Source of the DNA: Flavobacterium sp.
Lineage (GTDB): Bacteria > Bacteroidota > Bacteroidia > Flavobacteriales > Flavobacteriaceae
DNA length: 64,000 bases
Assembly: GCF_003497625.1 (NCBI RefSeq)
Contig: NZ_DNNO01000031.1
Reading direction: 5' to 3' (one strand)
Part shown: one piece after another, positions 4,273 to 35,463 of the stretch
Position numbering within the stretch: position 1 is the first letter of the stretch
Layout: the number at the start of each line of letters is the position of its first letter
Notes under the pieces: generated by a model
What the model saw: only the letters and a program-made list of their open reading frames with translations
Told to the model about the DNA's origin: nothing
The model's database searches: none
Program-made: the position numbers and the translations under genes

Positions 4273-4301
4273 GTTATTCTGTAAAAAAAATTAAAACACA
4301 T

Positions 4302-4365
4302 ATATCCCCATTACTAAACCTTTTGCGTTAATTAACTCCTATGGTTAAAATGGGGATATTTTTTA
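4302..4365 (+). terminator. terminator-like hairpin with long loop and T-run
   Basis: atatccccatt (4302-4312) pairs with aatggggatat (4349-4359) and is followed by tttttt. The 36-nt loop is long for a canonical terminator. Confidence 0.45.
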
Positions 4366-4387
4366 TCACTCAAAATAAATTTATACT

Positions 4388-4753: not shown

Positions 4754-5752
4754 AGAAAAATGGGTTCTGGTTTAGGTCTTTCAGACTGGAGTGCTATTGG
4801 ATCTAGAAATTATACAATTCCTGGTACTTCAATCCCAGCTAAAACAGATTCAATTACAAATACCTTAGGTAATAACAGAAGAATTCAAATAAGAGATACT
4901 GAAAGGTTAGATACTAATGCAAAAAACGCAAGTTTTGATGTAAGTGCAGACAAGTCTACTGGCGAAAAAATGTCTTCTAGCAACTTAAATGGTAATGGTT
5001 CACTTCTTCTCCATAGGTTTTCAACTGTTAATGATTCTCCCCATCTTATGGGATATATTGATGCTAACGATGAAACTCGAGATGGATATATAAGACAATC
5101 ATTTTTTAACTATCAAAATGGTACAAACGTTGCAAATAGAGCATTAGGTTATGGAGTTGAATTTTTTGGGGTTGCGTCAAATGGATTTAATCTGAAAATA
5201 AACAACAAGCAATTTCAAGCTAGTAATGGTTCATTTAATATAAGCGCTGATACACTGTCAGGATTTAGTGTTTCGGGTGGAAAATTTGTTAATGGAAATA
5301 CCATTGGTAAATATAAATATGCAAAGTTTATTACAAGAACAGGTCTTAGTGGTACTGGAAGTTTAGCGGAATTAGCAGTAAGTATTAATAGAGATGTTGA
5401 TGGTGAAAACTGGCAGGGTTCTACCATTCGTTTAGAAAAAACAATTGACAATAGTACTTCTATGGGGTTTATTGATTTTGGTTTAGCCGATGGAAATTTA
5501 GATACGGATCAATCTTTAGGTTTTGGTGTAGCTAACACAACAACTATGGTTTTGAGAAGGTCTAATAGTGATCCCAAAGTTGGTATAGGAACACTTAATC
5601 CACAAGCTAAGCTAGATGTAAATGGTTATATTAAGTTAGGTTCAGCAGATACTACTGGAGATGCAGCACCACAAGCAGGTATGTTACGTTTTAACACAAC
5701 TAATAATAAATTCCAAGGATACGATGGTACTACTTGGGTAAATTTAAATTAA
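4388..5752 (+). CDS. secreted hypothetical surface protein (paralogue A; conserved N-module, unique C-terminus ending in a KVGIGT tail-fibre-like motif)
   Basis: Signal peptide MKKFLFLIVLVSTSAIGQ. The first ~122 aa are nearly identical to ORF 5915..7849. Confidence 0.8.
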   Translation: MKKFLFLIVLVSTSAIGQVLSNQPVVNQITDQNPFLDASTSFNGPGSIGKGLVFPQTDLTAWTFDTSGLDGINFPSAFDGMIVYNTASGSTLENQGQIVSVTPGFYYFSNPGATDNIANGQWRKMGSGLGLSDWSAIGSRNYTIPGTSIPAKTDSITNTLGNNRRIQIRDTERLDTNAKNASFDVSADKSTGEKMSSSNLNGNGSLLLHRFSTVNDSPHLMGYIDANDETRDGYIRQSFFNYQNGTNVANRALGYGVEFFGVASNGFNLKINNKQFQASNGSFNISADTLSGFSVSGGKFVNGNTIGKYKYAKFITRTGLSGTGSLAELAVSINRDVDGENWQGSTIRLEKTIDNSTSMGFIDFGLADGNLDTDQSLGFGVANTTTMVLRRSNSDPKVGIGTLNPQAKLDVNGYIKLGSADTTGDAAPQAGMLRFNTTNNKFQGYDGTTWVNLN

Positions 5753-9772: not shown

Positions 9773-10132
9773 ATGGATAAACATCTTCATACAGGCTTTA
9801 AATTTTTCAATTGCAATTTGCGGTCTTATTGTTGTTTTGTTTTTTTAGGAGTTGCCTGTATCAACAATGCAGTTTTATATTTTATTCTTGAAAAATTTGT
9901 TTCGGATTATTTTAGCTATCATTTAACAGGGTTTCACTATCTAATAATTAATTTTTTTGGGTCGGTAATTAATTTTTTAATTCTTACTATTTATTTTAAA
10001 GAAGTGAGATTTTATCTTGATAACGATTTTGTATGGAGTACTAGTGATGAAGTTAAAAATTTAATTTTTCTAATTTTCTTCAATGTTTTAATGGTTCTTT
10101 CAGGCGGCATAACGGTGTCTCTCTTACAATAA
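9773..10132 (+). CDS. hypothetical small membrane protein (doubtful)
   Basis: ORF with 3-4 hydrophobic segments. It overlaps the 3' end of the convergent kinase gene by 9 nt. No recognisable motif, and it could be spurious in AT-rich DNA. Confidence 0.3.
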   Translation: MDKHLHTGFKFFNCNLRSYCCFVFLGVACINNAVLYFILEKFVSDYFSYHLTGFHYLIINFFGSVINFLILTIYFKEVRFYLDNDFVWSTSDEVKNLIFLIFFNVLMVLSGGITVSLLQ

Positions 10133-13000: not shown

Positions 13001-13045
13001 TATATTGTTCAGTAAATTTGAAACAATATAATAATAAATTTTAGA

Positions 13046-13798
13046 ATGAAAAAGTATACTGCTTTTATTGTTGATGATGAAGATAGAAATATAAATATTA
13101 TAGTTCATTTCATAAATAAGTTTTGCCCTAATATTGAAATTATTGGTACTTCTAATTCTTTTCAAGATTCGATTACTAAAATAGAATTGCTGAAGCCACA
13201 AATTTTATATTTAGATATTCAATTGCATGATAAAACCGCATTTGATATGTTGGATATAATTGATTTTTCCGAATATGAGATTATATTAGTAACTGCTTAT
13301 GACAATTTTGCTGTTAAGGCGTTTAAGTACAATGTGTTAGATTATGTTATGAAGCCAATATCTATCGAAGATATTGTATTGGCTTCTAATAAAGCAATTT
13401 CAAGAATTGAGGACAAAGAAGTTTTTGATAATGAAAAGTTTGAACTGAAATCTAATCATACTCCTGAAACTTCAAGTATTGTTACCATATCATCTATTGA
13501 TAAAATTGATATTATTAAAAAAGGTGACATATTGTTTTGTAAATCAGATGGTAGGTATACTACTTTTTATTTAAAAAATGGTGAAGAGTGCGTTGCGTGT
13601 AAAAATATTGGCGAGTATGAAAATTTATTGACGGATAATTGTTTTTTTAGAATTCATCAATCATACATCATTAACTTAGATTTTGTTGTTAGTATAAACA
13701 AGAAATCAGGTCATTATTGCGAAATGACTAATGGAGCGAGATTACCAATATCAAAAAGAAGAATTGAAGAATTTAATAAGTATTTAAAAATTAAATAA
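13046..13798 (+). CDS. LytR/AlgR-family response regulator (receiver + LytTR DNA-binding domain)
   Basis: Receiver motifs FIVDDE, LYLDIQL and MKPIS, plus LytTR motif FFRIHQSYIINLDFV. It is divergent from the kinase gene with a 45-bp spacer. Confidence 0.9.
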   Translation: MKKYTAFIVDDEDRNINIIVHFINKFCPNIEIIGTSNSFQDSITKIELLKPQILYLDIQLHDKTAFDMLDIIDFSEYEIILVTAYDNFAVKAFKYNVLDYVMKPISIEDIVLASNKAISRIEDKEVFDNEKFELKSNHTPETSSIVTISSIDKIDIIKKGDILFCKSDGRYTTFYLKNGEECVACKNIGEYENLLTDNCFFRIHQSYIINLDFVVSINKKSGHYCEMTNGARLPISKRRIEEFNKYLKIK

Positions 13799-14229: not shown

Positions 14230-14234
14230 TTTTT

Positions 14235-14342
14235 GGCAATGTTTCAGATTTAGTGATGCATGTTTTTGCGTATTTGACAAACTTATAATCAATAAAATTC
14301 AAAAATAATTGTAAAAAATTAGCTGTGTAGCTCATCTTTTTT
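14235..14342 (+). mobile_element. solo copy of the IS1-family left-end unit (IRL-like sequence plus ~85 bp)
   Basis: ggcaatgtttcagatttagtgatg... aligns over ~108 bp with the left end of the IS1-family element at 34606..34717. No transposase gene is attached. Confidence 0.6.
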
Positions 14343-19671: not shown

Positions 19672-22600
19672 ATGAAGAAATTATTTTATTTAGTAGTATG
19701 TATCCCTGTTCTTGCTTTAGGACAAAGTACAGACCAAAATTACGTTAAAACCACAGCATACAAAGAGCCTACCGCTTCATCGATAACTAATCCTGATATC
19801 AATCAGGCCAATGTTCAAGTGAGTTATTTTGATGGATTAGGAAGACCTATCCAACAAATTGCATACAAACAATCCAATACAGGAAAGGATATTGTAACGC
19901 ATATAGAATACGACCAGTTTGGCAGACAAACTAAAGATTATTTACCTTATGTAAGCAAAGGAGCATCATTAAATTATTTACCATTAGCACAAACCGATTT
20001 ATTAAATTTCTATGCTTCACCAAATACAACAAACACTGGAAATCCATATTTTGAAGCAACAGGAAATCCTTTTAGTGAGAAGCAATTGGATAATTCGCCA
20101 TTAAATAGAGTTCTTAAACAAGCAGCACCGGGTGATGTTTGGGGTTTACCTCAAACAACAGGTTTGTCTGATGACAGAAGTATCAAGTTTGACTACCAAA
20201 CAAACGTTGCAAATGAAGTCAAGTATTTTAAAGTAGTTTCATCATGGAATTCTTCAAAAGAGTTGTATGAACCTGCGATTGTTCAAACAGGAGATTATGC
20301 AGAGAATCAATTGTATAAAACAATAACAAAAGATGAAAATTGGGTTTCTGGAAAAAGCAACACTACAGAAGAATTCAAAGATAAAGAAGGTAAAGTGGTT
20401 TTAAAAAGAACCTATAATGATGTTTTTGTAGATGGTGTTCTAGTGGAATCTCAAGTAAAACACGATACCTATTATATCTATGATCAATACGGGAATCTTA
20501 CCTATGTAATTCCTCCATTAGCAGAAGGAATAGCTTCAGAAGAGAATTTGAATTATTTAGGTTACCAATACAAATACGATAGTAGAAATAGATTAGTAGA
20601 AAAGAAATTACCAGGTAAACAATGGGAATTTATTGTATATGATAAATTAGATAGACCAATTGCAACAGGACCAGCAAATAATCCTTATGGTGATGGTACG
20701 TTAGGTTGGATGATTACAGAATATGATGCTTTTGGTAGAATTACGCAAACGGGTTGGATAAAAATGACAGCAACTGAAGCCGAACGTAAGAACAATCAAA
20801 ATACAGTAAATTCAGGAGGTAATCCATTTACGTTGATACAAGATGATATTTTGACTAAAAACTATTACGATAATTATTCATTTGCAGAAGCTCCTAACAT
20901 GCCTCAAACTATTGAAGGACAAGTAGCAACAACTGCTACAAGAGGACTGCAAACAGGTTCTTGGGTTAGGGTTTTAGATAATCAAGGTAGTACAACAGCA
21001 GAAACTTCTTATACTTTGTATGATTTTAAATACCGACCTACAAGAACACGAACAACTAACTTTTTAGGAGGTTACACAGAGGTTGACAGTAAATTAGATT
21101 GGTCAGGAAAAGTAGAAAAAACCATTACCAAGCACAAATACGATAGTGCCACAGCCGTTTTAACCACAACGGAAACTTTTACCTACTCACCACAAGATAA
21201 ATTAGTTTTACATATACAAAAAATTAATCAGTCAGATGAACAACTTATTGCTAAAAATAGCTATGACGAATTAGGGCAACTTATCAAGAAAGAAGTTGGA
21301 GGAGTTGATATTACGGGTAATTTAGGCTTACAAACAGTAGATTATCAGTATAACATAAGAGGATGGTTAAAAGCAATAAACGACATTGAAACAGAGAATG
21401 ATTTGTTTGCCTTTAAAATTAATTATAATCAACCTGTCGATGCTACAGCACTTTACAATGGTAATATTTCTGAAACCTATTGGAAGACAGCATCGGATAA
21501 TATACTTAGATCATATCATTACAAATATGATGATTTAAATAGATTATTAGAAGGTAATTACAAGCGTGAAGGTGGTCAATATACTAATAGTTATCTAGAA
21601 AAATTATCATATGATAAAAATGGCAATATTTTAGATTTATTTAGAAACGGAGATAACGATGCGGTTGATTATGAATTTAATATTGATGATTTAAAATATT
21701 TTTATCATCCGCAGAAAGCAAATCAACTTATGAAAGTTACAGACCATAGTAACTCTCCTCAAGGTTTCAAAGATGATATTGTAGATGTAAATGATGTTGA
21801 AGACGATTACGAATATGATGATTTTGGTAATATGGTTGTTGATGCCAATAAGGACATTACTGATATTGATTACAATCATTTAAACTTGCCTACAAAAATA
21901 TATTTTGGAAATGGCACCTCTATTATTTACCTTTATAATGCGACAGGACAAAAAGTTAGAAAAGTGGTTCATTCAAATGACAATATTACAACTGATTATT
22001 TAGGTGGATTTCAATATCATAATAATAAATTGAAACATTTCCCTCATGCTGAAGGTTATGTAAATATTATAGATATTGTTGAGAACAAGTTTAAATACGT
22101 TTTTAATTACATGGATCATTTAGGGAATGTAAGGCTTTCATATTCGGATGCTAATGAGAATAATGTTGTTGAAGAAGATGAAATTTTAGAAGAAAACCAT
22201 TATTATCCTTTTGGGCTGAAACATACTGCCTACAACACGAATCATAGACAATATGTTTCTAATGAAGAGCTTAATGAAATTATTTTAGAACAAATGCCTA
22301 AGTTTGCAGGAGATGGGAGTTATAATTATAAATACAACGGAAAGGAATATCAAGACGAGCTGGGACTGAACATGTACGATTACGGAGCAAGGAATTACGA
22401 CCCTGCTTTAGGTAGATGGATGAACATTGACCCGCTGGCGGAACAAGGACGTAGATGGTCACCTTATAATTATGCGTTTAATAATCCTGTTTATTTTATT
22501 GACCCTGATGGGATGTGGCCGTGGCCTACATTGAAAGATGTTAAAAATTTTGTAAGTGCTACTGGTGATGGTATAGCGGGATTTTATAAAGACGTAAAAA

Positions 22601-23214
22601 ATACTGTTGTGAATGCTCCATCTAGGCTTGCAAAAGGTTATTCTTCACCAAAAGAGGCATTAAAATTAGCTGTTGAAACACATCCATTAAATATGGTTGT
22701 TGGACAATTTAAAAATACTGTTGATGGAGCTAAGAGTTTATCAAAAGGGGATTATAAAAGTGCAGGAAAAGCATATGGTAATCAATTAGGAGCAGGAAGT
22801 TTAGCCCTAGCTACGATGGGTACAGCCAAAAGTTCACCAAAAACAAGTGTGAAAAAAGTTGCTGCTGAAACCCCAGTTTCTAATCCAGTTCCATCTACTT
22901 TGGCTAGAGTAATTCCAGCAGATGTGCAGGCAACTACATTAGGGGCGCAATCTGCTGAAAGAGTTTTTGTTACTACGGCTAGTGATATTTCTGGCTTAAA
23001 TGCCTCAGGTATAGCTAATAAATTAACAATCCCTGAGAGTCCAACTGGATTTCAAGTAATAGAGTTTCCAACTCCAAGTAATGGTATTGCTACACCAATT
23101 CAGTCAAATCTACCTGGATTTATAGGTGGGGGTAAAACAGCTGGAGGTGCAACAGAATTTACAATCCCAAATCAACCAATTCCACTAAATGCAACAAAAA
23201 AAATAGTTGAATAA
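19672..23214 (+). CDS. RHS/YD-repeat polymorphic toxin (Bacteroidota-type N-terminus, RHS core, variable C-terminal toxin domain)
   Basis: Many YD repeats (YDxxGR/N). RHS core end reads [39 protein letters not shown]...NNPVYFIDPDGM. A ~235-aa unrelated C-terminal tip follows. Confidence 0.9.
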   Translation: MKKLFYLVVCIPVLALGQSTDQNYVKTTAYKEPTASSITNPDINQANVQVSYFDGLGRPIQQIAYKQSNTGKDIVTHIEYDQFGRQTKDYLPYVSKGASLNYLPLAQTDLLNFYASPNTTNTGNPYFEATGNPFSEKQLDNSPLNRVLKQAAPGDVWGLPQTTGLSDDRSIKFDYQTNVANEVKYFKVVSSWNSSKELYEPAIVQTGDYAENQLYKTITKDENWVSGKSNTTEEFKDKEGKVVLKRTYNDVFVDGVLVESQVKHDTYYIYDQYGNLTYVIPPLAEGIASEENLNYLGYQYKYDSRNRLVEKKLPGKQWEFIVYDKLDRPIATGPANNPYGDGTLGWMITEYDAFGRITQTGWIKMTATEAERKNNQNTVNSGGNPFTLIQDDILTKNYYDNYSFAEAPNMPQTIEGQVATTATRGLQTGSWVRVLDNQGSTTAETSYTLYDFKYRPTRTRTTNFLGGYTEVDSKLDWSGKVEKTITKHKYDSATAVLTTTETFTYSPQDKLVLHIQKINQSDEQLIAKNSYDELGQLIKKEVGGVDITGNLGLQTVDYQYNIRGWLKAINDIETENDLFAFKINYNQPVDATALYNGNISETYWKTASDNILRSYHYKYDDLNRLLEGNYKREGGQYTNSYLEKLSYDKNGNILDLFRNGDNDAVDYEFNIDDLKYFYHPQKANQLMKVTDHSNSPQGFKDDIVDVNDVEDDYEYDDFGNMVVDANKDITDIDYNHLNLPTKIYFGNGTSIIYLYNATGQKVRKVVHSNDNITTDYLGGFQYHNNKLKHFPHAEGYVNIIDIVENKFKYVFNYMDHLGNVRLSYSDANENNVVEEDEILEENHYYPFGLKHTAYNTNHRQYVSNEELNEIILEQMPKFAGDGSYNYKYNGKEYQDELGLNMYDYGARNYDPALGRWMNIDPLAEQGRRWSPYNYAFNNPVYFIDPDGMWPWPTLKDVKNFVSATGDGIAGFYKDVKNTVVNAPSRLAKGYSSPKEALKLAVETHPLNMVVGQFKNTVDGAKSLSKGDYKSAGKAYGNQLGAGSLALATMGTAKSSPKTSVKKVAAETPVSNPVPSTLARVIPADVQATTLGAQSAERVFVTTASDISGLNASGIANKLTIPESPTGFQVIEFPTPSNGIATPIQSNLPGFIGGGKTAGGATEFTIPNQPIPLNATKKIVE
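22327..22443 (+). repeat. rhs core-end repeat, copy 1 (direct repeat of 32742..32858)
   Basis: Hand alignment shows ~13 mismatches in 117 nt, mostly at synonymous third-codon positions. Confidence 0.85.
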
Positions 23215-23504
23215 TGAAACTTATTGAAGAAAAAGAAAAAGAATTGACAGGTAACTGGATATTTAAAGACGGTAAGATAGTTGAAGATGAAACTTCTAAA
23301 AGAATAAAATTTTTAATAGACAATTTTCTTGTGAAAATTGCCGTATCACCTTCAGGCTGGGAAAAATTATTTCAAGACCCAAATGATTTAAGATTTTGGG
23401 AATTGACATATAATGATGGGGAATTTCATGGAGGAGGTGCTCCATCATTAAGGAATATTTCAAAAGAAATGGCAGTGAAAAATTATTCTTTAAATGTTGA
23501 CTAA
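23214..23504 (+). CDS. putative cognate immunity protein of the RHS toxin tip
   Basis: 96-aa ORF whose ATG overlaps the rhs stop (TAATG), suggesting translational coupling. It has no signal peptide. Conserved-looking W...FWE...GGGAP segment. Confidence 0.7.
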   Translation: MKLIEEKEKELTGNWIFKDGKIVEDETSKRIKFLIDNFLVKIAVSPSGWEKLFQDPNDLRFWELTYNDGEFHGGGAPSLRNISKEMAVKNYSLNVD

Positions 23505-23513
23505 CATTGAAAT

Positions 23514-24047
23514 GGTAATGTTTCAGATTAAGACTACAACCATTCAAAAATCCTAAATTAAAATAGGATTAGTTAACTAGTTCGCAAACAATTAAACGGC
23601 ATTGATGTATGATTCAGAAATGCCGTTTTTTTAATAGTAAAAACAAGAAATCCTAACCGTTAAAAGTTAGGATTCTTTATTATTTTATAAACGTCCGCTA
23701 GCACGTAATCCTTCTTTTATTACATGTATGTCGCTCCAAAAAAGCTCAAATCTATTTCGATTATAAACTTGAATTAAACCATTAATTCCTTCAGGTGTTA
23801 ATTTATCTTTGAAATAATTATTGGTCAAAATGTGATATTTGGTTGATATTAGTGTGGTATCTTCATTACTATTCTTGAAAAAGAAATTATATTTTTCTCT
23901 TAATTTTTCCTTTAACAAATCGTTGTCAGCTTGGTTTGAATCATCGATTAAAATTTCTTCAGGAACTTTATTTTCAACGGATGTTTGTTCTTCAGGTAGA
24001 TTTGGTTCTTTTACCTCATCAGGTTCGTTTTCGGGTTCGTTTAAGTT
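23514..24047 (+). repeat. ~534-bp direct repeat R, copy 1 (hairpin-rich spacer plus 3' part of the Rep-like gene)
   Basis: Aligns with 34074..34605 at roughly 90% identity by eye. It begins with an IS1-IRL-like 20-mer, ggtaatgtttcagattaaga. Confidence 0.85.
23594..23632 (+). terminator. rho-independent terminator of the rhs-immunity operon
   Basis: aaacggcatt / aatgccgttt stem followed by a T7 run. Confidence 0.75.
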
Positions 24048-24407
24048 CTCGTTAAATGCAGTTTTTGAATTATTTGTTTTTAGATACTCATTGAATTTAT
24101 CAATGTCGATTTTGATTTCATGCGTTGAAGTGTAGCCGTTTTCTCCCTTTTTATTTCCTAACTGTATGCTTGAAAAAAAATCGAATTTCTTTGAAGTTGA
24201 AATGGTTTTTCTTATACCGCTTTCTGTTAGTCCTAATTGGTCAGCAATGTATTTGTTTTTTGCTGTTAGCGTTTTGCCTTTTTCTTGCCAGCCAATAATG
24301 TAAGCAAAAAAGATTTTTTGGGTTGATGTGATTTCTTGTACCGAGATTCTTCTAAGCGAATCGTTTACTTTGGTAAATGTTTTTTGATTTTTTTCACTAG
24401 GTTTCAT
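23685..24407 (-). CDS. HTH-domain protein, candidate replication initiator (Rep-like) of the plasmid-like element
   Basis: 240 aa. N-terminal winged-helix-like segment (FFAYIIGWQEKGKTLTAKNKYIADQLGLTESGIRKTIS), acidic linker, and conserved C-terminal domain. Iterons lie directly upstream. The Rep function is inferred from context only. Confidence 0.6.
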   Translation of the reverse strand: MKPSEKNQKTFTKVNDSLRRISVQEITSTQKIFFAYIIGWQEKGKTLTAKNKYIADQLGLTESGIRKTISTSKKFDFFSSIQLGNKKGENGYTSTHEIKIDIDKFNEYLKTNNSKTAFNENLNEPENEPDEVKEPNLPEEQTSVENKVPEEILIDDSNQADNDLLKEKLREKYNFFFKNSNEDTTLISTKYHILTNNYFKDKLTPEGINGLIQVYNRNRFELFWSDIHVIKEGLRASGRL

Positions 24408-24661
24408 TTTTAATATTTGTATTTCCTAATTGTTATTCCCTGCTTTTTTACTTGGTTAGGAAAGCTGGGCAGTATGCCTACTGTATGAACCCCAGCACCC
24501 AAGACAATCAAAAGTTGATTATGCTTAAATTTAGTCCTAATTATTGAATAAGTCAATGATTTTGGACAACAAAATGGTGGTTGAGATGCGTTTTTTTTTT
24601 GTTTGACTAACTTACTCCAAAAAGTCTTTGCTGTCAAGTTGAAATGCATTTTTTTCTGAAT

Positions 24662-24792
24662 TGTCCCACAGGACAGATGTAGTAATTTGGTTTGTCCTAG
24701 AGTACAATATCATGTCCCACAGGACAAAAGTAGTGTCCCCTAGCACAACATAGTTGTCCCACAGCACGGTTAAAAACGTCCTACAGTAACCC
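24662..24792. repeat. array of six iteron-like 14-mers (consensus TGTCCYAnAGnACA)
   Basis: Copies start at 24662, 24693, 24713, 24734, 24755 and 24777, with spacings of 31, 20, 21, 21 and 22 bp. Two copies are the perfect palindrome TGTCCCACAGGACA. A very AT-rich stretch follows (24795-24880). Confidence 0.8.
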
Positions 24793-24889
24793 TATATTAG
24801 ATTATATATTAAATTAATAATAAGAATATATATAATACTATTTATTAGGGAAATTAAGTTTTTTGTTGAATTTATCTTTTAATAAAAAT

Positions 24890-25135
24890 CGATTTCAACT
24901 TGAAATGAAGATTTACTTCAACTTAAATTTATTTATTGAAAAGAAACAATATCAACTAAAGGAAATGGCGGAGCCAACTCATATTCAACTTAAAATAAGT
25001 CCATACATCAACTAAAAGAAATTGGCGAAGCCAACATATATTCAACTTGAAATAAGTCTTCATATCAACTCAAAAGAAGTACTCATTTCAACCACCCGAA
25101 GGGAATCCATCTCAACCCCTACGGGAAGTAGACCC
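24890..25135. repeat. tandem 56-57-bp repeats with nine (A/T)TCAAC cores
   Basis: Units start at 24951, 25007 and 25064, with degenerate copies on either side. TCAAC cores lie at 24895, 24918, 24952, 24985, 25008, 25042, 25065, 25088 and 25112, with alternating ~23/34-bp spacing. No ORF covers the region. Confidence 0.8.
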
Positions 25136-25418
25136 AGCCCGCTAGCCGTTTTAAAGCATCTATTGACATCCCATTTTCACTGTCACTAGCACCTAAAAGC
25201 TAAAGGTTTGAAATACACAAATCCAACCCCTCGTATCTAAAAACAGCCCTTCCCCCCTGTAAACGAATTCAAAAATTGGGAAATGTTCATTTTCAGTTAT
25301 CCGCCTCATATTAGAATTTTCCACTCACATATTAATAGGCGAATAAATGCGTTCAAAAATTCTGAGTTAAAATTTTCAGAATTCAAAATTTGAAGATATT
25401 TATTAGTAAACGGAAAAC

Positions 25419-25562
25419 ATGAAAATAGTAATTACACTCAAGCAGTTAAAAGGGGTGCTTCGCACACAACCAATAAAACCAGTTGTTTTTAAAGTTGCTA
25501 ATTTCAACGATAAAGAAATGTTGGAATTATCAAAAATGTTTCAAGAAAAAGAACGATGTTAA
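25419..25562 (+). CDS. possible 47-aa ORF (hypothetical)
   Basis: MKIVITLKQLKGVLRTQPIKPVVFKVANFNDKEMLELSKMFQEKERC. Its stop lies inside a hairpin (aacgatgt taa cacatcgtt) followed by a T-run. It is below the length cut-off of the ORF track, and coding status is uncertain. Confidence 0.25.
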   Translation: MKIVITLKQLKGVLRTQPIKPVVFKVANFNDKEMLELSKMFQEKERC

Positions 25563-25790
25563 CACATCGTTTTTTTTATGCCTAAAAATGACCCAAAATC
25601 TCGCAAGCCCAGGAAAACCAGGATTTTTCTAGGATATGTAAAAAAAGACCTGGACATTTGTTTCACTATTGTAAAGAAGTGAAATAAAAGCAACAAACCC
25701 AGTAAAATCAAGGGTTTACAAAGGTTGGTAAAACGACCACTTTCACTAAGGGTAGAAAACTAATAAAAGTGAAACTAAAATCGTAAAATT

Positions 25791-26366
25791 ATGGCATTAA
25801 AAGGACAAAAAACAACGAGTGATTTTTTAGAGTGGGAAAAGATGCAATCACTAGTTTTAAAATTGGAGCGTGATGGTGAATTGAAATTTGCGCTATTGAT
25901 TGCGACAGGTTCATACATTGGACTTAGAATTTCAGATTTACTTCAATTACGTTGGAATCAGGTTTTAGACCAAGATTATTTTACCATCACCGAGAAGAAA
26001 ACCAAGAAAACACGTAAAGTAACTATTAACCCTGAGTTGAAAACAATTCTTAATCGTTTGTTTATTCAACTAGGAGCCAAAGAAAATGATTTAATGTTCG
26101 TGAACCGCTTCGGGGAAAAACCATTTTCAATCCAATACGTGAATAGTAAGCTAAAAGAGATATTTACCACTTACAAGATAAAAGGACAATATTCGAGCCA
26201 CTTTATGAGAAAGACACTAGGTCGCAGAATATGGGAAGTTAACAAGTACTCTGACCAAGCGTTGTTGTTATTATCTCAATTGTTCAATCATGCGAGCGTA
26301 TCAACAACCAAAATTTACTTAGGAATTCGTGAAACGGAGATTAGTAATCTGTATTTGAGTGTCTAA
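25791..26366 (+). CDS. short tyrosine recombinase (catalytic domain only, 191 aa)
   Basis: Catalytic motifs GLRISDL (Arg I), HFMRKT (HxxR) and NHASVSTTKIYLG (His...Tyr). It lacks the usual N-terminal core-binding domain. Confidence 0.8.
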   Translation: MALKGQKTTSDFLEWEKMQSLVLKLERDGELKFALLIATGSYIGLRISDLLQLRWNQVLDQDYFTITEKKTKKTRKVTINPELKTILNRLFIQLGAKENDLMFVNRFGEKPFSIQYVNSKLKEIFTTYKIKGQYSSHFMRKTLGRRIWEVNKYSDQALLLLSQLFNHASVSTTKIYLGIRETEISNLYLSV

Positions 26367-26854
26367 ACGGCACTCAATTTTCACAAAAACAGGTTGGAAT
26401 TATAGTAAATTGTTTAATTTGAATACGTTACAGGTGTTTTTAGAAAATAAGCCAAAAAATTATTCATAAAAATTCAGGTCATTTTTGTTAATGTTTTGCA
26501 GAATATTCAAAAAAAATCAAGAGTAACCAAATTAAACAATTCAGCAACCGTAACTAGTTGATTTTCAAGGCTAATTGAAATTTGTCTAAAAACAGACTGA
26601 GAATTCAATAATTGTAAGAATTTACCCGTTTTTTAGTCTCGTTTCGCTACCATATCTTTGTAAAAGGAAATCCAAGAAAAACGAAACATCTAACCTAACT
26701 ACTAGCTATAGTGGGGCTTAAGTTTTAAAAAAGTTGATTGTAGAGCTAAACATTTCAACTAGAAAAATCATAATTAATTTATCAAATTACCAATTCGGTG
26801 AAATACCCGAAGCAGGATTCTTATGTCCAAAATTTTACGTCAAACCTTTAAAAA

Positions 26855-27427
26855 TTGAAGCTTATGGAAACACTCGATACCTTGTTTAAATCCTTTGAAA
26901 TGGGACTTAGAATGCCAAAGGCGGTAAAGCCAAAAGAATACCTTAAAAGTTCAGGGTTGGATTATACCGATTTGCGTATTGGTTTTAATTCGGGTCAGTT
27001 TCACCACAACGTAAGCCAAGAGTTAAAAGACAATTACGAGGCGTTGGGAGTAATTCAAAAAAGCAACGCTGGAGTAAGTAAAGAAGGAATGACCGCTTAC
27101 ACCGTGTTTGGTAGATATAGTGTAGTGTTTCCGTTGATGAATCAAAAAAACGAGGTTGTTAATCTTTTTGCGATACGTTTTGATATGGAAACCCAACAAG
27201 CGGAATATCTCAACAGCGAGGGCATTTATCCAAACTATCCGCCACCATTAACCAAACGATTGTACATAGTTCCAACGGTTTTAGATTGTGCCAGCCTTTT
27301 ACAAAGCAAGATACTTGAAAATAGGGATTCGGTCATGGCATTACACAACGCAGAACTATTGCCACAGCATTTGGAAGCTATAAAAACATTACACGAATTG
27401 GAAGAAATCATCATCATTAAAAATTAA
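26855..27427 (+). CDS. hypothetical protein, possibly a degenerate Toprim/primase-like module
   Basis: The ORF track starts at TTG 26855, and the first ATG is at 26864. The segment RLYIVPTVLDCASLLQ...VMALHNAELLPQHLEAIK has a Toprim-like strand-helix layout, but Pro replaces the Toprim Glu. It ends 5 nt before the next gene. Confidence 0.5.
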   Translation: MKLMETLDTLFKSFEMGLRMPKAVKPKEYLKSSGLDYTDLRIGFNSGQFHHNVSQELKDNYEALGVIQKSNAGVSKEGMTAYTVFGRYSVVFPLMNQKNEVVNLFAIRFDMETQQAEYLNSEGIYPNYPPPLTKRLYIVPTVLDCASLLQSKILENRDSVMALHNAELLPQHLEAIKTLHELEEIIIIKN

Positions 27428-27432
27428 GCACT

Positions 27433-29103
27433 ATGGAAAATATCAAATCAACATTACAAGCATTACGCCCTGAGTTACCAATTACCATGATTGGGTTGCC
27501 TGATGGTGAAAACTTAAATACCATGTGGCTTAATTATGGTGCGGATGGAATCCTACAATTAATCAGCGATTCAAAAGATGAAAATCAAAATAATTTTTTA
27601 GATATAATCAACGATTTTAAAATTGGATTCAAGGGTAAAACAGGTGAATTCTTTGTAATCGGTCAGTTGCCAATGGATTTGGGAAATCTAAGAGTGACGC
27701 TCCAAATTGTAAACCACCACAATCAGAAGAAAATCCGATTGAAAATTGATTTGTACGACTTTGTGAGCGTTCAGAACCAATGCAGGGAACTATCCGAGAA
27801 ACAAGGTTTTGACATCAATCTACTAGAAGCGGATTTGATTCAGTTAACTGACCTACTAGAAGAGTACAGAGAATCGCTTTTTGATGCTGAAATTAACCCG
27901 ATAACGGACAAATATTCAGAAAACGAGCTAACACCCCAAGCCAATGAAAAAGCGGTGCAATTCCTATCAAATAAACGCCTACTAGAAAACATCGATAAAC
28001 TATTGGAACAATCGGGAATCGTTGGTGAGGAAGAAAACAGAAAACTACTTTTCATTTTAGCCAGCAGTTACAAAATGCCGTATTTGTTGCATGCGCTGAT
28101 TCAAGGAACATCGGGCGAAGGTAAAAGCCATTTGCTTAACTCAATTGCAGAATGTATGCCACAGGAAGACGTAATGAATCTAACTCGAATCACAAGTAAA
28201 TCATTGTACCATTACAGGGAAAAAGAGTTAATGAATAAACTGATTTTGATTCAGGATTTTGATGGACTAGACGAAGAAGCCCAATTTGCTTTTAGAGAAA
28301 TGCAATCCGCTAAATTTCTGAGTAGTTCAACGGTGGTTAAAGATATGTTTGGACAAACACGAGGCAAGATGAAACAAGTACAAGCCCATTTTTCAAGTCT
28401 GACCGCCACCACTAAAGCTGAGGTGTATTATGATAACATGAGCCGTTCGGTGGTCTTGGGTGTGGATGAATCACAGGAGCAAACCCTAAGAATCATAAAG
28501 CAACAAAACATGAAAATCGCAGGAATTAGTAGCTCAGAATCGGAGCAACAAGCCAAACAATTACTAAGAAATGCAATGCGGGTGCTAAAGAGTTATGAAG
28601 TGGTGAATCCGTATGCGGATAAACTTATGTTGCCTCTTGAAGCTAAGATGTTAAGACGATTAAACAGCCAGTTTCAAAACTTTGTTTCTCAAATTACAAT
28701 CTTGCACCAGTTCCAACGTAAAACGGATGACAAAGGCAGGCTAATCGCTACTAAAGAAGACATTCAAAAAGCAGTTGAAATATTTTTCAGCAGTATTGTA
28801 ATCAAAGTGGATGAACTCGATAAAAGCACAAGGCAATTCTTTGAACGATTGAAAGGCTATGTGAAAAGCCAACCAAACGGAACAACGCACCGTTTCTGCA
28901 TTCGAGAAGTAAGACAAGATTTGAACATGAGTAAAACATCTGCATTCAAGTATTTTCAAACCTTACAGGAATTGGAATACATTCAAGTGGTGGAAGGTGC
29001 GGTGAACAAAGGATTCAAATACACCATTTCATACTGGGACAATATGGAAAAGCTAAAAGCCAAAATCAAAGAGGACTTAAACAAACAGCTGTTCGCTTTT
29101 TAG
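27433..29103 (+). CDS. P-loop NTPase, primase-associated helicase-like replication protein
   Basis: Walker A GTSGEGKSH and Walker B LILIQDFDG, with a winged-helix-like C-terminus. It is comparable to primase/helicase proteins of Bacteroidota mobilisable elements; that comparison is a family-level inference. Confidence 0.65.
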   Translation: MENIKSTLQALRPELPITMIGLPDGENLNTMWLNYGADGILQLISDSKDENQNNFLDIINDFKIGFKGKTGEFFVIGQLPMDLGNLRVTLQIVNHHNQKKIRLKIDLYDFVSVQNQCRELSEKQGFDINLLEADLIQLTDLLEEYRESLFDAEINPITDKYSENELTPQANEKAVQFLSNKRLLENIDKLLEQSGIVGEEENRKLLFILASSYKMPYLLHALIQGTSGEGKSHLLNSIAECMPQEDVMNLTRITSKSLYHYREKELMNKLILIQDFDGLDEEAQFAFREMQSAKFLSSSTVVKDMFGQTRGKMKQVQAHFSSLTATTKAEVYYDNMSRSVVLGVDESQEQTLRIIKQQNMKIAGISSSESEQQAKQLLRNAMRVLKSYEVVNPYADKLMLPLEAKMLRRLNSQFQNFVSQITILHQFQRKTDDKGRLIATKEDIQKAVEIFFSSIVIKVDELDKSTRQFFERLKGYVKSQPNGTTHRFCIREVRQDLNMSKTSAFKYFQTLQELEYIQVVEGAVNKGFKYTISYWDNMEKLKAKIKEDLNKQLFAF

Positions 29104-29226: not shown

Positions 29227-30144
29227 ATGAAAAAAACGATACAAACACCAGCATTTACAAACCTTTACAACGAATTTGAAAGCTTCGTTAGAGTTAGAAA
29301 CTACAAACAAGGCAAAAGCAAAATGTATCAAAGTGTGGTATCGGAATTTTTATCATGGTTGGAACAAAACGGAATCACCAAAATCAAAGAGGTTAGCTCT
29401 GAAATCTCAATCCAATATTTTGAGTATTTAATCACAAGACCCAAACTAAGAGCCGAAGGGACACTTTCTGAAAAGTCCATCAAGTTTCATTTGTTCGTAT
29501 TGGGATTATTTGTGTTAAACCTTTTAGAAACCAATCAAATTGAAAAAGCGTTTTACATTCCGAGCTACAGCGGAGCAAACGAAAAACCAAGAAATATCAT
29601 TTCGGTTGCTGAGGTTCAAATGTTGTACATGAGCGCACAAAACGAGCTTGAAAAGGCATTGTTGTCGGTGGCGTATGGTTGTGGTCTTAGAAGGTCTGAA
29701 ATTCACTCTTTGGATGTAAAAGATGTGCAACTATCCATCGGAATGTTAATTGTTAGAAAAGGTAAAAATTCCAAACGCAGAGAAGTTCCCATGAGTGATA
29801 ATGTAATAAGCCATTTGAGAAAATACATCACCGAAGAACGCTACGAGCGATTAGAAGGAAAACCCCAATTGGAAGATGCTTTTTTCATAAACAACAAAGG
29901 CAAGCGAATGAGTGGGGAGCATCTGAATGATACGCTAAAGAATCTGATTGAAAGCACCAATAATTACGAGCTGATTCAAAAGGAAATAACGCTTCATTGT
30001 CTCAGACATAGTATTGCGTTCCACTTAGCAGAAAACAACGCAGGAATCGACTTTATACGCAGGTTTTTGGGTCATTCACAAATCAACACCACGTATTTGT
30101 ATGCGATTAAGAACAAAAAACGAAAACCAACAACAACCTTTTAA
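29227..30144 (+). CDS. tyrosine recombinase/integrase (XerC/D-like), first of a back-to-back pair
   Basis: Catalytic motifs GCGLRRSEI (Arg I), HCLRHSIA (HxxR) and GHSQINTTYLYA (His...Tyr). Confidence 0.9.
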   Translation: MKKTIQTPAFTNLYNEFESFVRVRNYKQGKSKMYQSVVSEFLSWLEQNGITKIKEVSSEISIQYFEYLITRPKLRAEGTLSEKSIKFHLFVLGLFVLNLLETNQIEKAFYIPSYSGANEKPRNIISVAEVQMLYMSAQNELEKALLSVAYGCGLRRSEIHSLDVKDVQLSIGMLIVRKGKNSKRREVPMSDNVISHLRKYITEERYERLEGKPQLEDAFFINNKGKRMSGEHLNDTLKNLIESTNNYELIQKEITLHCLRHSIAFHLAENNAGIDFIRRFLGHSQINTTYLYAIKNKKRKPTTTF

Positions 30145-30147
30145 CTT

Positions 30148-31023
30148 TTGCCTATGAAAACACCAACGTTAGAAATGTTTTTAAACGAAATGTTGACCAC
30201 CAAAACCGCTGAAAGCTATTTGTACACCATCAATCATTTTATTAAAACCAATCCAAAGGCAAAGCGTTACAAGTTTAAAGAAGTGGTGCAATACATGGAA
30301 CTAGTGAACCAAAAACAATCCAATCCACAATACAGAATCCGAATCCTATCCGCTATAAAAAAGTATTACGATTATTTGATAATTACAGGGCAACGAAGCG
30401 ACCACCCATGTAAGAAACTAAACATCAAAAGAAACAGTAATCAAGCTATTCAAACGCAGGATTTATTTTCTAGTGAGGAATTGGAGCTACTACTCCAAAG
30501 GGAAAACCGCTATTGGTTTTTAGAGTTACGCAATCAAGTTCTTTTAGGATTACTGATTTATCAAGGATTATCCAGTGAGGAAATAATTAGGCTCGAATTA
30601 AAAAATATCGATTTGGATAATGGAACAATCTACGTTAAAGCTTCAAAGAATCTCAACCGAAGAACCCTAGAACTCAAACCAAAACAAATCCTACCACTAT
30701 CAAAATACATTGATGAGGTTAGACCTAAAATGCTAATGATGAAAACCGATGTGCTGGTGCTAAACAAGTTGGGAAAACCTTTTACCGTTGATGGTGTTGG
30801 GTCGATAATTGAACCGTTAAAGTGTTTATTCCCCGATAGAAAACTCAATCCGCAAACTATCCGCATGAGTGTTATTTGTAATTGGTTAAACGAACGTAAA
30901 TTGACATTGGAGCAAACGCAAGAACTCGCAGGGCATAAATGGATAGGCACAACGGAGAAATACATCAAATCGGATGCTAAAAACGAACGGGAATTGATAA
31001 ACAGGTATTTTCCTAAGTTGTAA
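30148..31023 (+). CDS. tyrosine recombinase/integrase, second of the pair, with Ser at the Arg I position
   Basis: It starts 3 nt after the stop of the previous gene. GLSSEEI occupies the usual GLRxSE position, and IRMSV and GHKWIGTTEKYIKS (His...Tyr) are retained. Confidence 0.85.
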   Translation: MPMKTPTLEMFLNEMLTTKTAESYLYTINHFIKTNPKAKRYKFKEVVQYMELVNQKQSNPQYRIRILSAIKKYYDYLIITGQRSDHPCKKLNIKRNSNQAIQTQDLFSSEELELLLQRENRYWFLELRNQVLLGLLIYQGLSSEEIIRLELKNIDLDNGTIYVKASKNLNRRTLELKPKQILPLSKYIDEVRPKMLMMKTDVLVLNKLGKPFTVDGVGSIIEPLKCLFPDRKLNPQTIRMSVICNWLNERKLTLEQTQELAGHKWIGTTEKYIKSDAKNERELINRYFPKL

Positions 31024-32641: not shown

Positions 32642-32741
32642 TTTCTGTTTTTTATTGAAAATCCTTACATTTGAATCGCTATGATTTAATGAAAAAAGTA
32701 CGTTCTTAATCCATTAGAGCAGTTTCACAAAGGCGTATAAG

Positions 32742-32858
32742 TATAAATACAACGGAAAGGAATATCAAGATGAGTTAGGGCTTAACATGTACGATTATGG
32801 AGCAAGGAATTATGACCCTGCACTAGGTAGATGGATGAATATTGACCCGTTGGCGGAG
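32742..32858 (+). repeat. rhs core-end repeat, copy 2
   Basis: See 22327..22443. Confidence 0.85.
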
Positions 32859-33650
32859 AAATATTACTCATTGTCTTCATATAATTACACATCTAACAAT
32901 CCTATTAGATTTATAGACCCTAATGGAGAAGATATTTACATAATGCTCTATACAAGCGGTAATGACCATGGAGATAGAATGTTCAAAGCGGCAGCTGAAA
33001 CTAGGAAAAAGAACATTGAAGAAGGAAAAGGTTTTGACCCCAAAAAGGATATTGTCTTGATGTTGGAAGTTACTGATTTAGGTAAGTTGAAAGATATGAT
33101 TGAGGGTGCAATAGATGAGAACAGTGAAAAGTATGGTGAAACACAGGAGGTAGGGATGTGGTCTCATGCTGGTTTAGATGGTCCAATAGGTACTGAAGAG
33201 ACTTCTGAAAATCAATTAGGTGGAGTTTCAACACAAATGACTTTACAAGGTTGGGGAAATATTGATTTTAACTGGAAGAATAATGGGAATGGTACTAATC
33301 TTTCTTTTTATGGATGCAATACTGGTAATTCAGAATATAGAGGTGATTCTTTTGCGACAAATATATCAGGATTAGACAATTATAAAAATGTAAATGTTTC
33401 GGGTCAAACAACTTCAGCCTACCCTTCACTTTTTACTAATAAACGTGTTACAACTATTGCTAGAAATGGAAATTTATGGGGAGCGTGGACATTAGGAGGA
33501 GATACATACATGGTAGGTGGAAACAAAGGTCAAGGATATCAATCTACATCACCGTCAATAAAAGAAAATTATCCTTCTGCGAATCCTATGCAAGTTAGTA
33601 AGAATGGAGCAATCACTAAAACAATTTATCAACCAGGGACTAAATTCTAA
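32742..33650 (+). pseudogene. orphan (displaced) rhs module: core-end stub plus alternative C-terminal toxin tip CT2
   Basis: The in-frame sequence reads [42 protein letters not shown]...FIDPNGE followed by a new ~245-aa tip. The frame is closed by TAG at ~32713, so there is no rhs body. Only the internal ATG at 32787 could initiate translation. Confidence 0.85.
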
Positions 33651-33656
33651 TTAGTT

Positions 33657-34064
33657 ATGAAAAAAACAAATAAATTATTTTTATTACTTTTTGTGTTTTT
33701 CTTTAGTTGTGGAAAAAAAAATAGTTTAGAGCTAAACTTTTCTGAACAACTTAAGGATGTAGATTTTAAAATTGAAATGAGAGCATTAGGTAGTAATATA
33801 CCTAAAAAAGTAATTTATGACGGAAGTAAAAAATACGAGATACCATTTGAATATGGTGAGAATGAATGGTATTTTAGCTACAAGGATAGTGTCTATGCTT
33901 ACTTCAGGCATATAAAGACAAATAGAAATGATGGGCATAATTATAATTATAATTTTATAAAAGAAGGTGATAGAATTAAAGTTGAGATTATTATTTTAGG
34001 TGTAAGTAAAGTAAATAGAAGTGTATATTTTTCAACTAATAAAATAGACAGTTTTACTCGATAA
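33657..34064 (+). CDS. putative immunity lipoprotein for CT2
   Basis: It starts 7 nt after the CT2 stop. The lipoprotein signal is MKKTNKLFLLLFVFFFSCGKK. Confidence 0.65.
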   Translation: MKKTNKLFLLLFVFFFSCGKKNSLELNFSEQLKDVDFKIEMRALGSNIPKKVIYDGSKKYEIPFEYGENEWYFSYKDSVYAYFRHIKTNRNDGHNYNYNFIKEGDRIKVEIIILGVSKVNRSVYFSTNKIDSFTR

Positions 34065-34152
34065 GCTGGATTTGCTAATGTATCAGATTTGTGATACAAC
34101 CATTCATAAATCTTAATTAAAACAGGATTAGTTAACTAGTTCGCAAACAATT

Positions 34153-34191
34153 AAACGGCATTGATGTATGATTCAGAAATGCCGTTTTTTT
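34153..34191 (+). terminator. rho-independent terminator (copy of 23594..23632)
   Basis: Same aaacggcatt / aatgccgttt stem followed by a T-run. Confidence 0.7.
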
Positions 34192-34242
34192 AATAGCAAA
34201 AACAAGAAATCCTAACCGTTAAAAGTTAGGATTCTTTTTGTT

Positions 34243-34605
34243 TTATATACGTCCGCTGGCACGTAATCCTTTTTTTATTTCATGTATGTCATTCCAAAAA
34301 ATTTCAAAGTTATTTCTATTATATGCTTGAATTAAAGTATTAATTCCATCGGGCGGAAATTTATCCTTGAAATAATTGTTGGTTAAAATGTGATACTTAG
34401 TTGATATTAGTGTGGTATCTTCATTACTATTCTTGAAAAAGAAATTATATTTTTCTCTTAATTTTTCCTTTAACAAATCATTGTCGGCTTGGTTTGAATC
34501 ATCGATTAAAATTTCTTCAGGAACTTTATTTTCAACTGTTGTTTGTTCTTCAGGTTGATTTGGTTCTTCTACCTCATCAGGTTCGTTTTCGGGTTCATTT
34601 AAGTT
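34243..34605 (-). pseudogene. 5'-truncated second copy of the Rep-like HTH gene
   Basis: It encodes NLNEPENEPDEVEEPNQPEEQTTVENKVPEEILIDDSNQADNDLLKEKLREKYNFFFKN...LRASGRI, which is ~85% identical to the C-terminal half of the 23685..24407 product. The N-terminal half has been replaced by the IS. Confidence 0.85.
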
Positions 34606-35463
34606 GGTAATGTTTCAGATTTAGTGATGAGCACTTTTTTGATGTTTAACAAATTGATAATCAACAAAAATTAAAAATAATTGTAAAAAAGATGAGCTAC
34701 ATAGTTCATCTTTTTTTATGTTTAAAGCTCTTAAATCTAAGAAAATGATAAAAAATGAAACCTCGTGTGTCAGATTTAGTGATAATAAAATTTGCCCAAG
34801 TTGTAGTTCAAATCATGTTATCAAAAACGGTTTTACAGCAAATAAAAAGCAACAGTTTATTTGTAAATCATGTAAAAATAGATTTATAGATTTTTATACT
34901 TATAAAGCCTATAATCATTGGGTAGATAAAAGAATTGTTCAATTTACAAAAGAAGGATTGGGTATACGAAGCACAGCAAGAATTTTAAAAATATCGACAA
35001 CTACCTTATTGAAAAGAATAATTGCAATTGCTAAGAAAATCCCTAGCAAACCTATTTTTAAACACAAAACCTATGAAGTTGACGAGATCAGAACGTTTAT
35101 AAAAAACAAAGAAAAACCAATTTGGATTGTCTATGCCTTGGAAAGAAAAACTAAACAAGTTGTAAATTTTAGCATTGGCAGAAGAACTAAAAGAACATTG
35201 CAATATGTAACTAATACGTTATTGTTGTCCAATCCTAAAACAATTTATACAGATAAGCTAGTGCATTATAAGTCATTACTAAATAATGTTGTACACAATA
35301 CAAAGCCTTTTGGTACAAATCACATAGAAAGAAAAAACCTTTCATTAAGGACTCATCTCAAAAGACTTAATAGGAAAACTATTTGCTTTTCAAGAAGTTT
35401 TATATTGTTGCAATGTGTTTTGAGGATTTATTTTTGGGGATAGAAATTTACTAGTTATTCACC
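34606..35463 (+). mobile_element. IS1-family insertion sequence (left end clear, right end tentative)
   Basis: The left end GGTAATGTTTCAGATTTAGTGATG resembles the E. coli IS1 IR (GGTGATGCTGCCAACTTACTGATTTAGTG). It carries a single fused InsAB-like ORF. The right end is only weakly inverted (GGGTGAATAAC read from 35464). No target-site duplication is visible. Confidence 0.7.
34718..35443 (+). CDS. IS1-family transposase (fused InsA-InsB type)
   Basis: N-terminal zinc finger CPSC...CKSC, HTH segment GLGIRSTARILKISTTTL, and C-terminal NHIERKNLSLRTHLKRLNRKTICFSRS matching the IS1 InsB [26 protein letters not shown]. The start may instead be ATG 34745. Confidence 0.85.
   Translation: MFKALKSKKMIKNETSCVRFSDNKICPSCSSNHVIKNGFTANKKQQFICKSCKNRFIDFYTYKAYNHWVDKRIVQFTKEGLGIRSTARILKISTTTLLKRIIAIAKKIPSKPIFKHKTYEVDEIRTFIKNKEKPIWIVYALERKTKQVVNFSIGRRTKRTLQYVTNTLLLSNPKTIYTDKLVHYKSLLNNVVHNTKPFGTNHIERKNLSLRTHLKRLNRKTICFSRSFILLQCVLRIYFWG

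Follow-up and report, generated by a model that had tools for sequence, protein, structure and literature searches.

Among the described systems that come closest to the locus considered here, the origin of the lambdoid phages lies inside the gene of its initiator, O, phage P4 carries two separate repeat clusters (ori and crr), and the iterons of plasmids such as pPS10, pSC101, F, P1 and R6K commonly autoregulate. Two further systems concern toxins and their immunity genes: the C-terminal displacement of RHS proteins, with its arrays of orphan tips (Jackson et al. 2009, as cited in PMC13183296), and the rAID islands of Bacteroidales, in which co-oriented orphan immunity genes form an array behind a single tyrosine recombinase (PMC12247911). 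The locus lies in a 64-kb stretch of Flavobacterium DNA (contig NZ_DNNO01000031.1), hereafter the window, where positions 23685-25155 hold the gene of a 240-aa protein and a non-coding block of repeats. We read this module, with a probability of roughly 0.62, as a phage-type (lambda O-like) initiator gene together with its predicted cis-acting origin. The module is an accessory part of a ~10-kb element that stands in tandem at the 3' end of an RHS toxin gene. Its parts are the following:

23685-24407, minus strand: gene of the 240-aa putative initiator (open reading frame, ORF; AlphaFold model; PHROG replication-initiation matches; HTH_36 in 28 of 69 relatives)
24408-24661, minus strand: leader or promoter region of the initiator gene (96% conserved; hairpin at 24452-24502; three reversed TCAAC cores)
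24662-24790, plus strand: six oriented, iteron-like 14-mers, TGTCCYANAGNACA (repeat scan; motif conservation)
24793-24860, no strand: AT-rich tract of 68 bp, up to 93% A+T, candidate unwinding element
24865-25117, plus strand: nine TCAAC cores and one reversed core at 24865, with two 57-bp units
25118-25155, no strand: GC-rich end of the conserved block (GGGAAGTAGACCCAGCCCGC), where conservation ceases

The AlphaFold model of the 240-aa protein (predicted local distance difference test, pLDDT, 65) comprises a winged helix at residues ~28-112, an acidic disordered linker (114-161) and a helical C-terminal domain (159-236). Its PHROG matches are to replication initiation, namely phrog_270 (E 7.6e-5), phrog_8102 (6e-4) and the O-like phrog_391 (7e-3). 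A profile search of 1.84 billion representatives returned 144 relatives, 69 of which were scanned in turn: 34 match phrog_270, 20 phrog_428, 17 phrog_391 and nine each phrog_8102 and phrog_678, with DnaD-like loaders in four and Pfam HTH_36 in 28. Because the relatives match initiator PHROGs, the 240-aa family is a phage-type replication-initiator family; the evidence for a lambda O-type identity lies in sequence matches at the level of the family, and for this single protein the identity is weakly indicated. The protein is rare, with 14 clusters among 5.8 billion proteins, all of them metagenomic, and a single locus in the 185,579 GTDB species genomes, in Flavobacterium cucumis DSM 18830. It has no tblastn match in 72,556 plasmids; phages gave no match either to the protein by tblastn or to the block by blastn, and IMG/VR gave none to the protein profile or to the pattern of the AT tract.

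The block itself, which was read directly and scanned for repeats, is a 750-bp non-coding region at 24408-25155. Its 14-mers start at 24662, 24693, 24713, 24734 and 24755, followed by a degenerate sixth copy, CGTCCTACAGTAAC, at 24777; the start-to-start spacings are 31, 20, 21, 21 and 22 bp, and the consensus over six sites in eight loci is T-G-T-C-C-(C/T)-A-(C/G)-A-G-N-A-C-A. They are located 255-383 bp upstream of the start codon of the initiator gene. Two are perfect palindromes, and the better half-site, TGTCC, keeps the same side in every copy, so that the 14-mers are oriented direct repeats. In the window, TGTCCYANAGNACA occurs without mismatch at three sites only, all within this array, and with up to two mismatches it finds 22 matches, against 7.0 +/- 3.2 in shuffled sequences, none of which reached 22. 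The adjoining tract holds 93% A+T at 24800-24839 and 82% at 24840-24879. Beyond it, Tandem Repeats Finder reports a second array at 24951-25078 (period 57, 2.2 copies, 84% matches, score 177), and on the plus strand eight copies of WTCAAC at 24894-25092, followed by CTCAAC at 25111, make up nine cores that span 24894-25116 with spacings of 23, 34, 33, 23, 34, 23, 23 and 24 bp; the background of WTCAAC in the window is about one per 960 nt per strand. Reversed cores stand at 24514, 24580, 24638 and 24865, two of those in the leader being 58 bp apart, and therefore nested inverted repeats (24576-24601 with 25071-25096, and 24634-24653 with 24884-24903) bracket the 14-mers and the AT tract. In homologous loci, indels of 1, 2 and 6 nt break up the short reading frames that run across the arrays, and these frames are thus not coding. 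An earlier note on this DNA had described the phased 14-mers with their two palindromes, the AT-rich stretch and a second array of 56-57-bp tandem units, with nine cores at alternating 23/34-bp spacing, and had held that no ORF explains the arrays; all of this stands, although the reversed cores and the RHS-element context had been overlooked.

Small hairpins accompany the repeats. Each long spacer of the TCAAC array contains a GC mini-hairpin with a GNA triloop (GGCGGAGCC at 24965-24975, GGCGAAGCC at 25022-25034 and CCCGAAGGG at 25096-25104), whose stems are near-invariant across loci and whose loops are limited to GAA, GGA and GTA. DNA mini-hairpins of the GCGAAGC type are unusually stable and are found at single-strand origins. 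The leader contains a larger and nearly invariant hairpin at 24452-24502 (CTTGG...GCTGGGCAGTAtgccTACTG...CCCAGC...CCAAG), with one compensatory change in locus L007, from CAGTA/TACTG to CGGTA/TACCG (alignment columns 65/76); the hairpin may act as a translational or antisense control element. A search for the Bacteroidetes -7 promoter motif found one TAnnTTTG, located inside the iteron array, and a sigma-70 scan gave no excess over shuffled sequences. The other intergenic regions of the element contain no repeat arrays.

The block and the 240-aa gene were compared in eight loci that have the gene (the window, L001, L007, L010, L011, L014, L015 and L017) and in five related elements that lack it (L022, L023, L025 from F. 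johnsoniae, and the plasmid-borne L018 and L019). Over the eight loci the 750-bp block is 90% conserved, and the initiator proteins of the loci fetched through the 240-aa family are 72-94% identical. Conservation is focused on the repeats, since the 14-mers are 95% conserved against 88% for their spacers, and the TCAAC cores 99% against 90% for the remainder of their array. Both arrays are found in 8/8 loci with the gene and in 0/5 elements without it, among them L022, which has neither array even though its recombinases and helicase are 92% identical to those of the window at the DNA level. This strict co-occurrence ties the arrays to the 240-aa protein and not to the shared recombinases and helicase, and the gene and block are, as judged from sequence, one co-inherited cis module.

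The module has a sharp edge, the block ending at ~25155. At ~25155-25169, five of the loci (L007, L010, L011, L014 and L017) carry a 1-kb insert that encodes an HTH_3 protein (81 aa) and a SHOCT-domain protein (~212 aa); it is missing in the window, L001 and F. cucumis, and no direct repeats were found to flank it. In L022 (78-1712) and L027 (2336-3967) the slot of the initiator and block is occupied by an unrelated gene of 543-544 aa, which may be an alternative replication module; the 544-aa gene of L022 belongs to no informative family, and its sole match is a PHROG of unknown function.

More distant homologues, 36% identical to the 240-aa protein, occur on two metagenome contigs. One of these, L021, is phage-like (holin, endolysin-like protein, DUF6712), and upstream of the homologue gene it has an AT tract in which ~41 of 44 nt are the same as in the window. 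After the tract come three diverged 22-23-bp repeats, TGTTGCTGTAGCACC / TGTTGCTGTAGCACCACCCCCC, whose window counterparts, read on the sense strand of the gene, are GTTACTGTAGGACG and CCGTGCTGTGGGACA, similar but different. The contig stops at the AT tract, so the comparison covers the side of the iterons and not that of the TCAAC array. The iterons were compared in L021, the upstream DNA of L016 (P0014) being too short for this purpose. The earlier note had named the covariation of protein and iterons in homologues as something to look for, and L021 displays it: with a diverged protein, the repeats appear changed and the layout and AT tract kept, as would be expected of an initiator and its origin.

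In the mechanism that we propose, the winged helix of the initiator would bind the six phased 14-mers, and because these lie upstream of the initiator's own gene, such binding would probably also autoregulate it. The resulting nucleoprotein complex would open the adjoining tract of ~90% A+T. The TCAAC cores, with their opposed orientations around the 14-mers and the AT tract, may form a second set of binding sites, which could give order or orientation to replisome loading or to copy control, for instance for the primase-helicase of the element or a second surface of the initiator; this is the least certain step. From this origin, the element would then be replicated while circular or amplified.

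Around the module, the window contains the following features:

19672-23214, plus strand: full-length DUF6443-RHS-Ntox10 toxin, 1180 aa, the expressed tip beside the element
23214-23504, plus strand: Imm27 immunity gene
23509-23684, no strand: conserved post-immunity segment with two terminator hairpins, the left edge of the conserved element, repeated at 34062-34243
25419-26366, plus strand: 47-aa ORF and small tyrosine recombinase of 191 aa, the latter at 25791-26366
26855-29103, plus strand: split DnaG-type primase / Toprim / P-loop helicase, 190 aa and 556 aa, without zinc finger
29227-31023, plus strand: pair of XerC/D-like tyrosine recombinases, 305 aa and 291 aa
31024-32712, plus strand: variable cargo, here a 195-aa gene; in other loci, other genes or a YoeB/Phd pair
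32713-32926, plus strand: RHS hook, made up of a conserved pre-hook of ~22 nt and ~190 nt of RHS core end
32787-33650 and 33657-34064, plus strand: displaced (orphan) toxin tip and its immunity gene
34062-34603, minus strand: second copy of the post-immunity segment and of the initiator gene (3' part), truncated by an IS1-family element from 34604

Upstream on the plus strand, the RHS locus runs from a Por_Secre_tail protein through a 1119-aa RHS protein to the 1180-aa toxin and Imm27, and the 240-aa gene, on the minus strand, is convergent with Imm27. Two stretches of this locus recur downstream. The hook copy within the full-length RHS gene (22321-22515) repeats at 32736-32926 as the start of the orphan, which opens with the RHS-associated core (TIGR03696), and 23502-24054, which covers the post-immunity segment and, of the 240-aa gene, the 3' third, has its second copy at 34062-34603. 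The locus is therefore a tandem of one unit, in the order RHS hook, tip, immunity gene, 240-aa gene, block, recombinases and primase-helicase, and cargo. All elements share an identical left boundary of the hook, before which stands the conserved, non-RHS pre-hook. The arrangement in tandem suggests that successive insertions at the RHS core end pushed the older tip and its immunity gene downstream. The earlier note had placed the module inside the chromosome; more precisely, it is carried by a mobile element inserted at the RHS toxin gene.

The 190-aa ORF aligns to residues 99-263, and the 556-aa ORF to residues 281-827, of fused CHC2/Toprim/P-loop proteins of 827-932 aa encoded by Aureispira and Aureibacter plasmids, and since these are successive parts of the fused proteins, the two ORFs are a split primase-helicase. 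The split (window 26367-27427) is found in all the Flavobacterium elements, which also miss the CHC2 zinc finger of the fused relatives; no remnant of it was found upstream of the primase, where 490 bp are non-coding. PDB chain sequences contain no match to the 556-aa or the 240-aa protein. The 191-aa recombinase is replaced, at exactly the same position, by a 227-aa serine resolvase in L017 (419-1102) and L022 (3699-4382), elements that are otherwise 92-94% identical. A Recombinase-in-trio (RIT) element, in which three tyrosine recombinase genes of one orientation stand side by side between inverted repeats, was considered for the three recombinases and rejected, because the primase-helicase stands between the 191-aa gene and the pair, the resolvase takes its place in L017 and L022, and the Aureispira relative has only the pair.

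The IS1-family element at 34604-35450, with the left end GGTAATGTTTCAGATTTAGTGATG..., truncates the second initiator copy; the same left end is present as a solo copy of ~110 nt upstream of the toxin locus (14233-14342), a 16-nt motif of the IS1 end directly follows both immunity-gene stop codons (23514-23530 and 34074-34090), and L001 has four copies of ~180 nt resembling miniature inverted-repeat transposable elements. Just upstream of the RHS toxin locus, window 10124-13798 encodes a hybrid sensor histidine kinase (Reg_prop/Y_Y_Y/His_kinase) and a LytTR response regulator, which may control that locus.

A polymorphic-toxin tip with its immunity gene immediately precedes the module in every fetched locus whose contig reaches the flank. 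The elements are 92-94% identical to that of the window, as opposed to 68-75% for the flanking RHS genes (92% and 68-71%, respectively, in the comparison with F. cucumis), and this higher conservation of the element than of its RHS flanks points to horizontal movement. Recombinase and primase-helicase genes with an RHS or other toxin tip and its immunity gene on one side and downstream cassettes on the other are also seen in F. johnsoniae, two further isolate genomes and plasmids of Aureispira and Aureibacter; in F. johnsoniae and both plasmids, an orphan RHS tip follows these genes. The F. johnsoniae element (L025; CP140160.1, 6007177-6028856) comes directly after a 1743-aa DUF6443-RHS gene and is followed by a DUF4329 / Imm-NTF2-2 orphan cassette and an IS1. 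Both plasmid loci (L018, on Aureispira sp. CCB-E plasmid NZ_CP133672.1, and L019, on Aureibacter tunicatorum pAT2) have the same layout, in the order RHS, immunity gene, HTH_3, fused primase-helicase, two tyrosine recombinases and orphan RHS tip, and in both the unit restarts downstream with identical proteins.

One metagenome contains a contig, L017 (JGI 3300028584, 13,497 nt), with an exact terminal overlap of 102 nt, which would close it to a circle of 13.4 kb. It holds one complete unit, with a PT-HINT tip, the resolvase in place of the 191-aa recombinase, and an extra SIR2 cargo; the latter, a SIR2_2-domain gene with two small ORFs at 4235-5584, between the initiator stop codon and the post-immunity segment, may be defence cargo. 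No second circular contig was found, the 10-14-kb contigs L014, L022, L023, L027 and L028 being bounded by the hook or by repeats.

Besides the initiator family and its cis block, the reading as an origin can count on the element's own replication genes, the DnaG-type primase and the P-loop helicase. Several observations weigh against it. The PHROG matches of the window protein itself are weak, and Pfam and NCBIfam gave no match. Foldseek with the AlphaFold model retrieved from the PDB generic winged helices alone (TFE-alpha, MarR, the Orc1 winged helix), a result that, being so generic, cannot separate an initiator from a regulator. No DnaA box (TTATCCACA, up to one mismatch) was found at 24300-25300, the two palindromic 14-mers would fit dimer operators as well, and the role assigned to the TCAAC array is a guess. 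The helicase family has >1300 clusters, mostly from Flavobacterium, against 14 for the initiator; as most relatives of the element thus lack the module, it is not required for the basic life cycle. L017, finally, ends at a branch point, its nt 13243-13497 being identical to nt 1-255 of L010, a chromosomal contig of the same sample, so that a free circle and a collapsed tandem copy are indistinguishable there. The main rival, which is partly compatible with an origin, makes the block a transcriptional control region, the 240-aa protein a repressor or activator of the element (a master regulator of its excision or replication genes), and the 14-mers operators in a divergent promoter. It would account for the palindromes, for a block situated between divergent genes, for a fold search that yielded mostly MarR-type regulators, and for the position of the 240-aa gene, which is that of the divergent HTH_3 regulator in the Aureispira and Aureibacter elements. 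We consider it unlikely, however, because the family-level matches are to replication initiators and not to regulators, the start codon is 255-383 bp away from the six phased sites, which adjoin a conserved AT tract, and the tract and repeats recur with a distant homologue in the phage-like L021. The 240-aa protein has no homology to those HTH_3 regulators, and in five loci an HTH_3 gene is present alongside the 240-aa gene, which is therefore not its replacement; autoregulation by iterons, in turn, fits the origin as well.

The remaining rivals concern chiefly the TCAAC array, for which the earlier note had offered a partition site, an oriT or recombinase arm-type sites. A phased array on one face of the DNA beside a replication module, as in many plasmids, and strands that both fold better than shuffled sequences (z -4.2 and -3.4) could belong to a partition centromere or an oriT of the circular form; yet no ORF of 23.5-32.7 kb has a ParA/ParB-like or a relaxase/mobilisation domain, and the array is inherited with the initiator gene only, which makes this very unlikely. 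It is still harder to believe that the arrays, TCAAC especially, are accessory arm-type or resolution sites of the tyrosine recombinases, comparable to attP arms or cer/res, since they are absent from L022, L023, L025, L018 and L019, of which L022 has the same recombinases and helicase. Three recombinase genes are nearby, phased short repeats at 23/34-bp spacing do resemble arm-site arrays, and the 1-kb insert lies exactly at the block end in five loci; that insert has no flanking direct repeats, though, and the junctions are at the RHS hook, 1.9 kb away from the block, which is an internal part of the integrated element. The co-occurrence thus speaks against the recombinase proposal of the earlier note, as does the lack of partition and relaxase genes against the other two. 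Least probable of all is a structured non-coding RNA encoded in the block, which its high conservation without an ORF, its many small hairpins and the one compensatory change in the leader hairpin might suggest. An Rfam scan of 23.4-26.0 kb gave no match in the block (GibS scored 32 bits, with a gathering score of 115, in the 3' end of the initiator gene), and RNAalifold on the eight loci gave an unfavourable covariation term (+1.57), its long-range pairs being the inverted TCAAC arms; neither strand folds better than the other, the folding reflecting the small GC hairpins and these arms.

Taken as an initiator with its origin, the module would be, for Bacteroidota, a new and unusually elaborate iteron-type candidate origin paired with a phage O-like initiator; few mobile-element origins are defined in this phylum, and the module could become a small replicon for Flavobacterium genetics. 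The context of the element matters more than the module alone. The same architecture of hook, tip, immunity gene, recombinases and primase-helicase, often in tandem, follows RHS genes in Flavobacterium (including F. johnsoniae), Aureispira and Aureibacter, and the searched literature describes no RHS-associated recombinase/primase element. The element appears to bring new toxin tips. We tentatively propose, as a possibility that falls somewhat short of an even chance, that these elements form an undescribed family of 'RHS tip shuttles' in Bacteroidota, small integrative replicons that carry a ~200-bp hook, a tip and an immunity gene, recombine with the end of the resident RHS core, fuse the incoming tip to the host scaffold and push the old tip and the previous element downstream as an orphan. 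They would thereby be the vehicle of the long-postulated C-terminal displacement, with the lambda O-like, double-array origin as an optional, phage-derived add-on. If so, tip delivery would explain both the swapping of RHS toxins between strains and the build-up of orphan tips, and F. johnsoniae would be a tractable system for its study.

Among known origins, the predicted one is best read as being of the lambdoid O type rather than of the plasmid RepA type. Like O, the initiator carries its winged helix at the N terminus, joined by a flexible linker to a C-terminal domain, with O-like PHROGs among its matches, and as at ori-lambda, repeats with ~20-bp phasing and internal dyad symmetry lie directly beside an AT-rich tract. 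Unlike the lambda origin, this one lies upstream of the gene, has six sites instead of four and an extra TCAAC array on both sides; there is no adjacent P/DnaC-type loader, the neighbours being an immunity gene and a 47-aa ORF and the element's own primase-helicase lying 2.4 kb away, and the host element is not a phage. With the iteron plasmids the module shares direct repeats in helical phase (six where at least three, of about 17-22 bp, are expected; the spacing is 20-22 bp with one 31-bp gap) and an AT-rich region upstream of the initiator gene, with autoregulation likely. The theta-type plasmid origin put forward in the earlier note therefore holds in part: a cis block is tied to a gene of an initiator family, but the protein is not of the RepA/Rep_3 type, has one winged helix and not two, and is accompanied by no DnaA box. 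The replicon is, moreover, integrated, and the sequence of its second array differs from that of the iterons, although this second cluster is reminiscent of the incA and incC control arrays of P1 and F.

The primase-helicase, which has a C-terminal DNA-binding-like region, recalls the alpha protein of phage P4 and primase-helicase islands, as do the integrative element, its tyrosine recombinases and the presence of two repeat clusters; here, however, the arrays go with a separate 240-aa initiator, and the primase is split and without zinc finger. A rAID island was rejected on the grounds of gene content: both occur in Bacteroidota and set a tyrosine recombinase beside interbacterial toxin/immunity cassettes with conserved intergenic sequence, whereas rAID islands carry immunity genes only, with no primase-helicase, initiator/origin or RHS hook. 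With RHS displacement arrays, the locus has in common a full-length RHS gene followed by orphan tips that start from the conserved core end, each with its immunity gene. What sets it apart is that an entire element, equipped with recombinases, a primase-helicase and, in this locus, the origin module, stands between one tip and the next, and this intervening element suggests a dedicated vehicle rather than plain homologous recombination.

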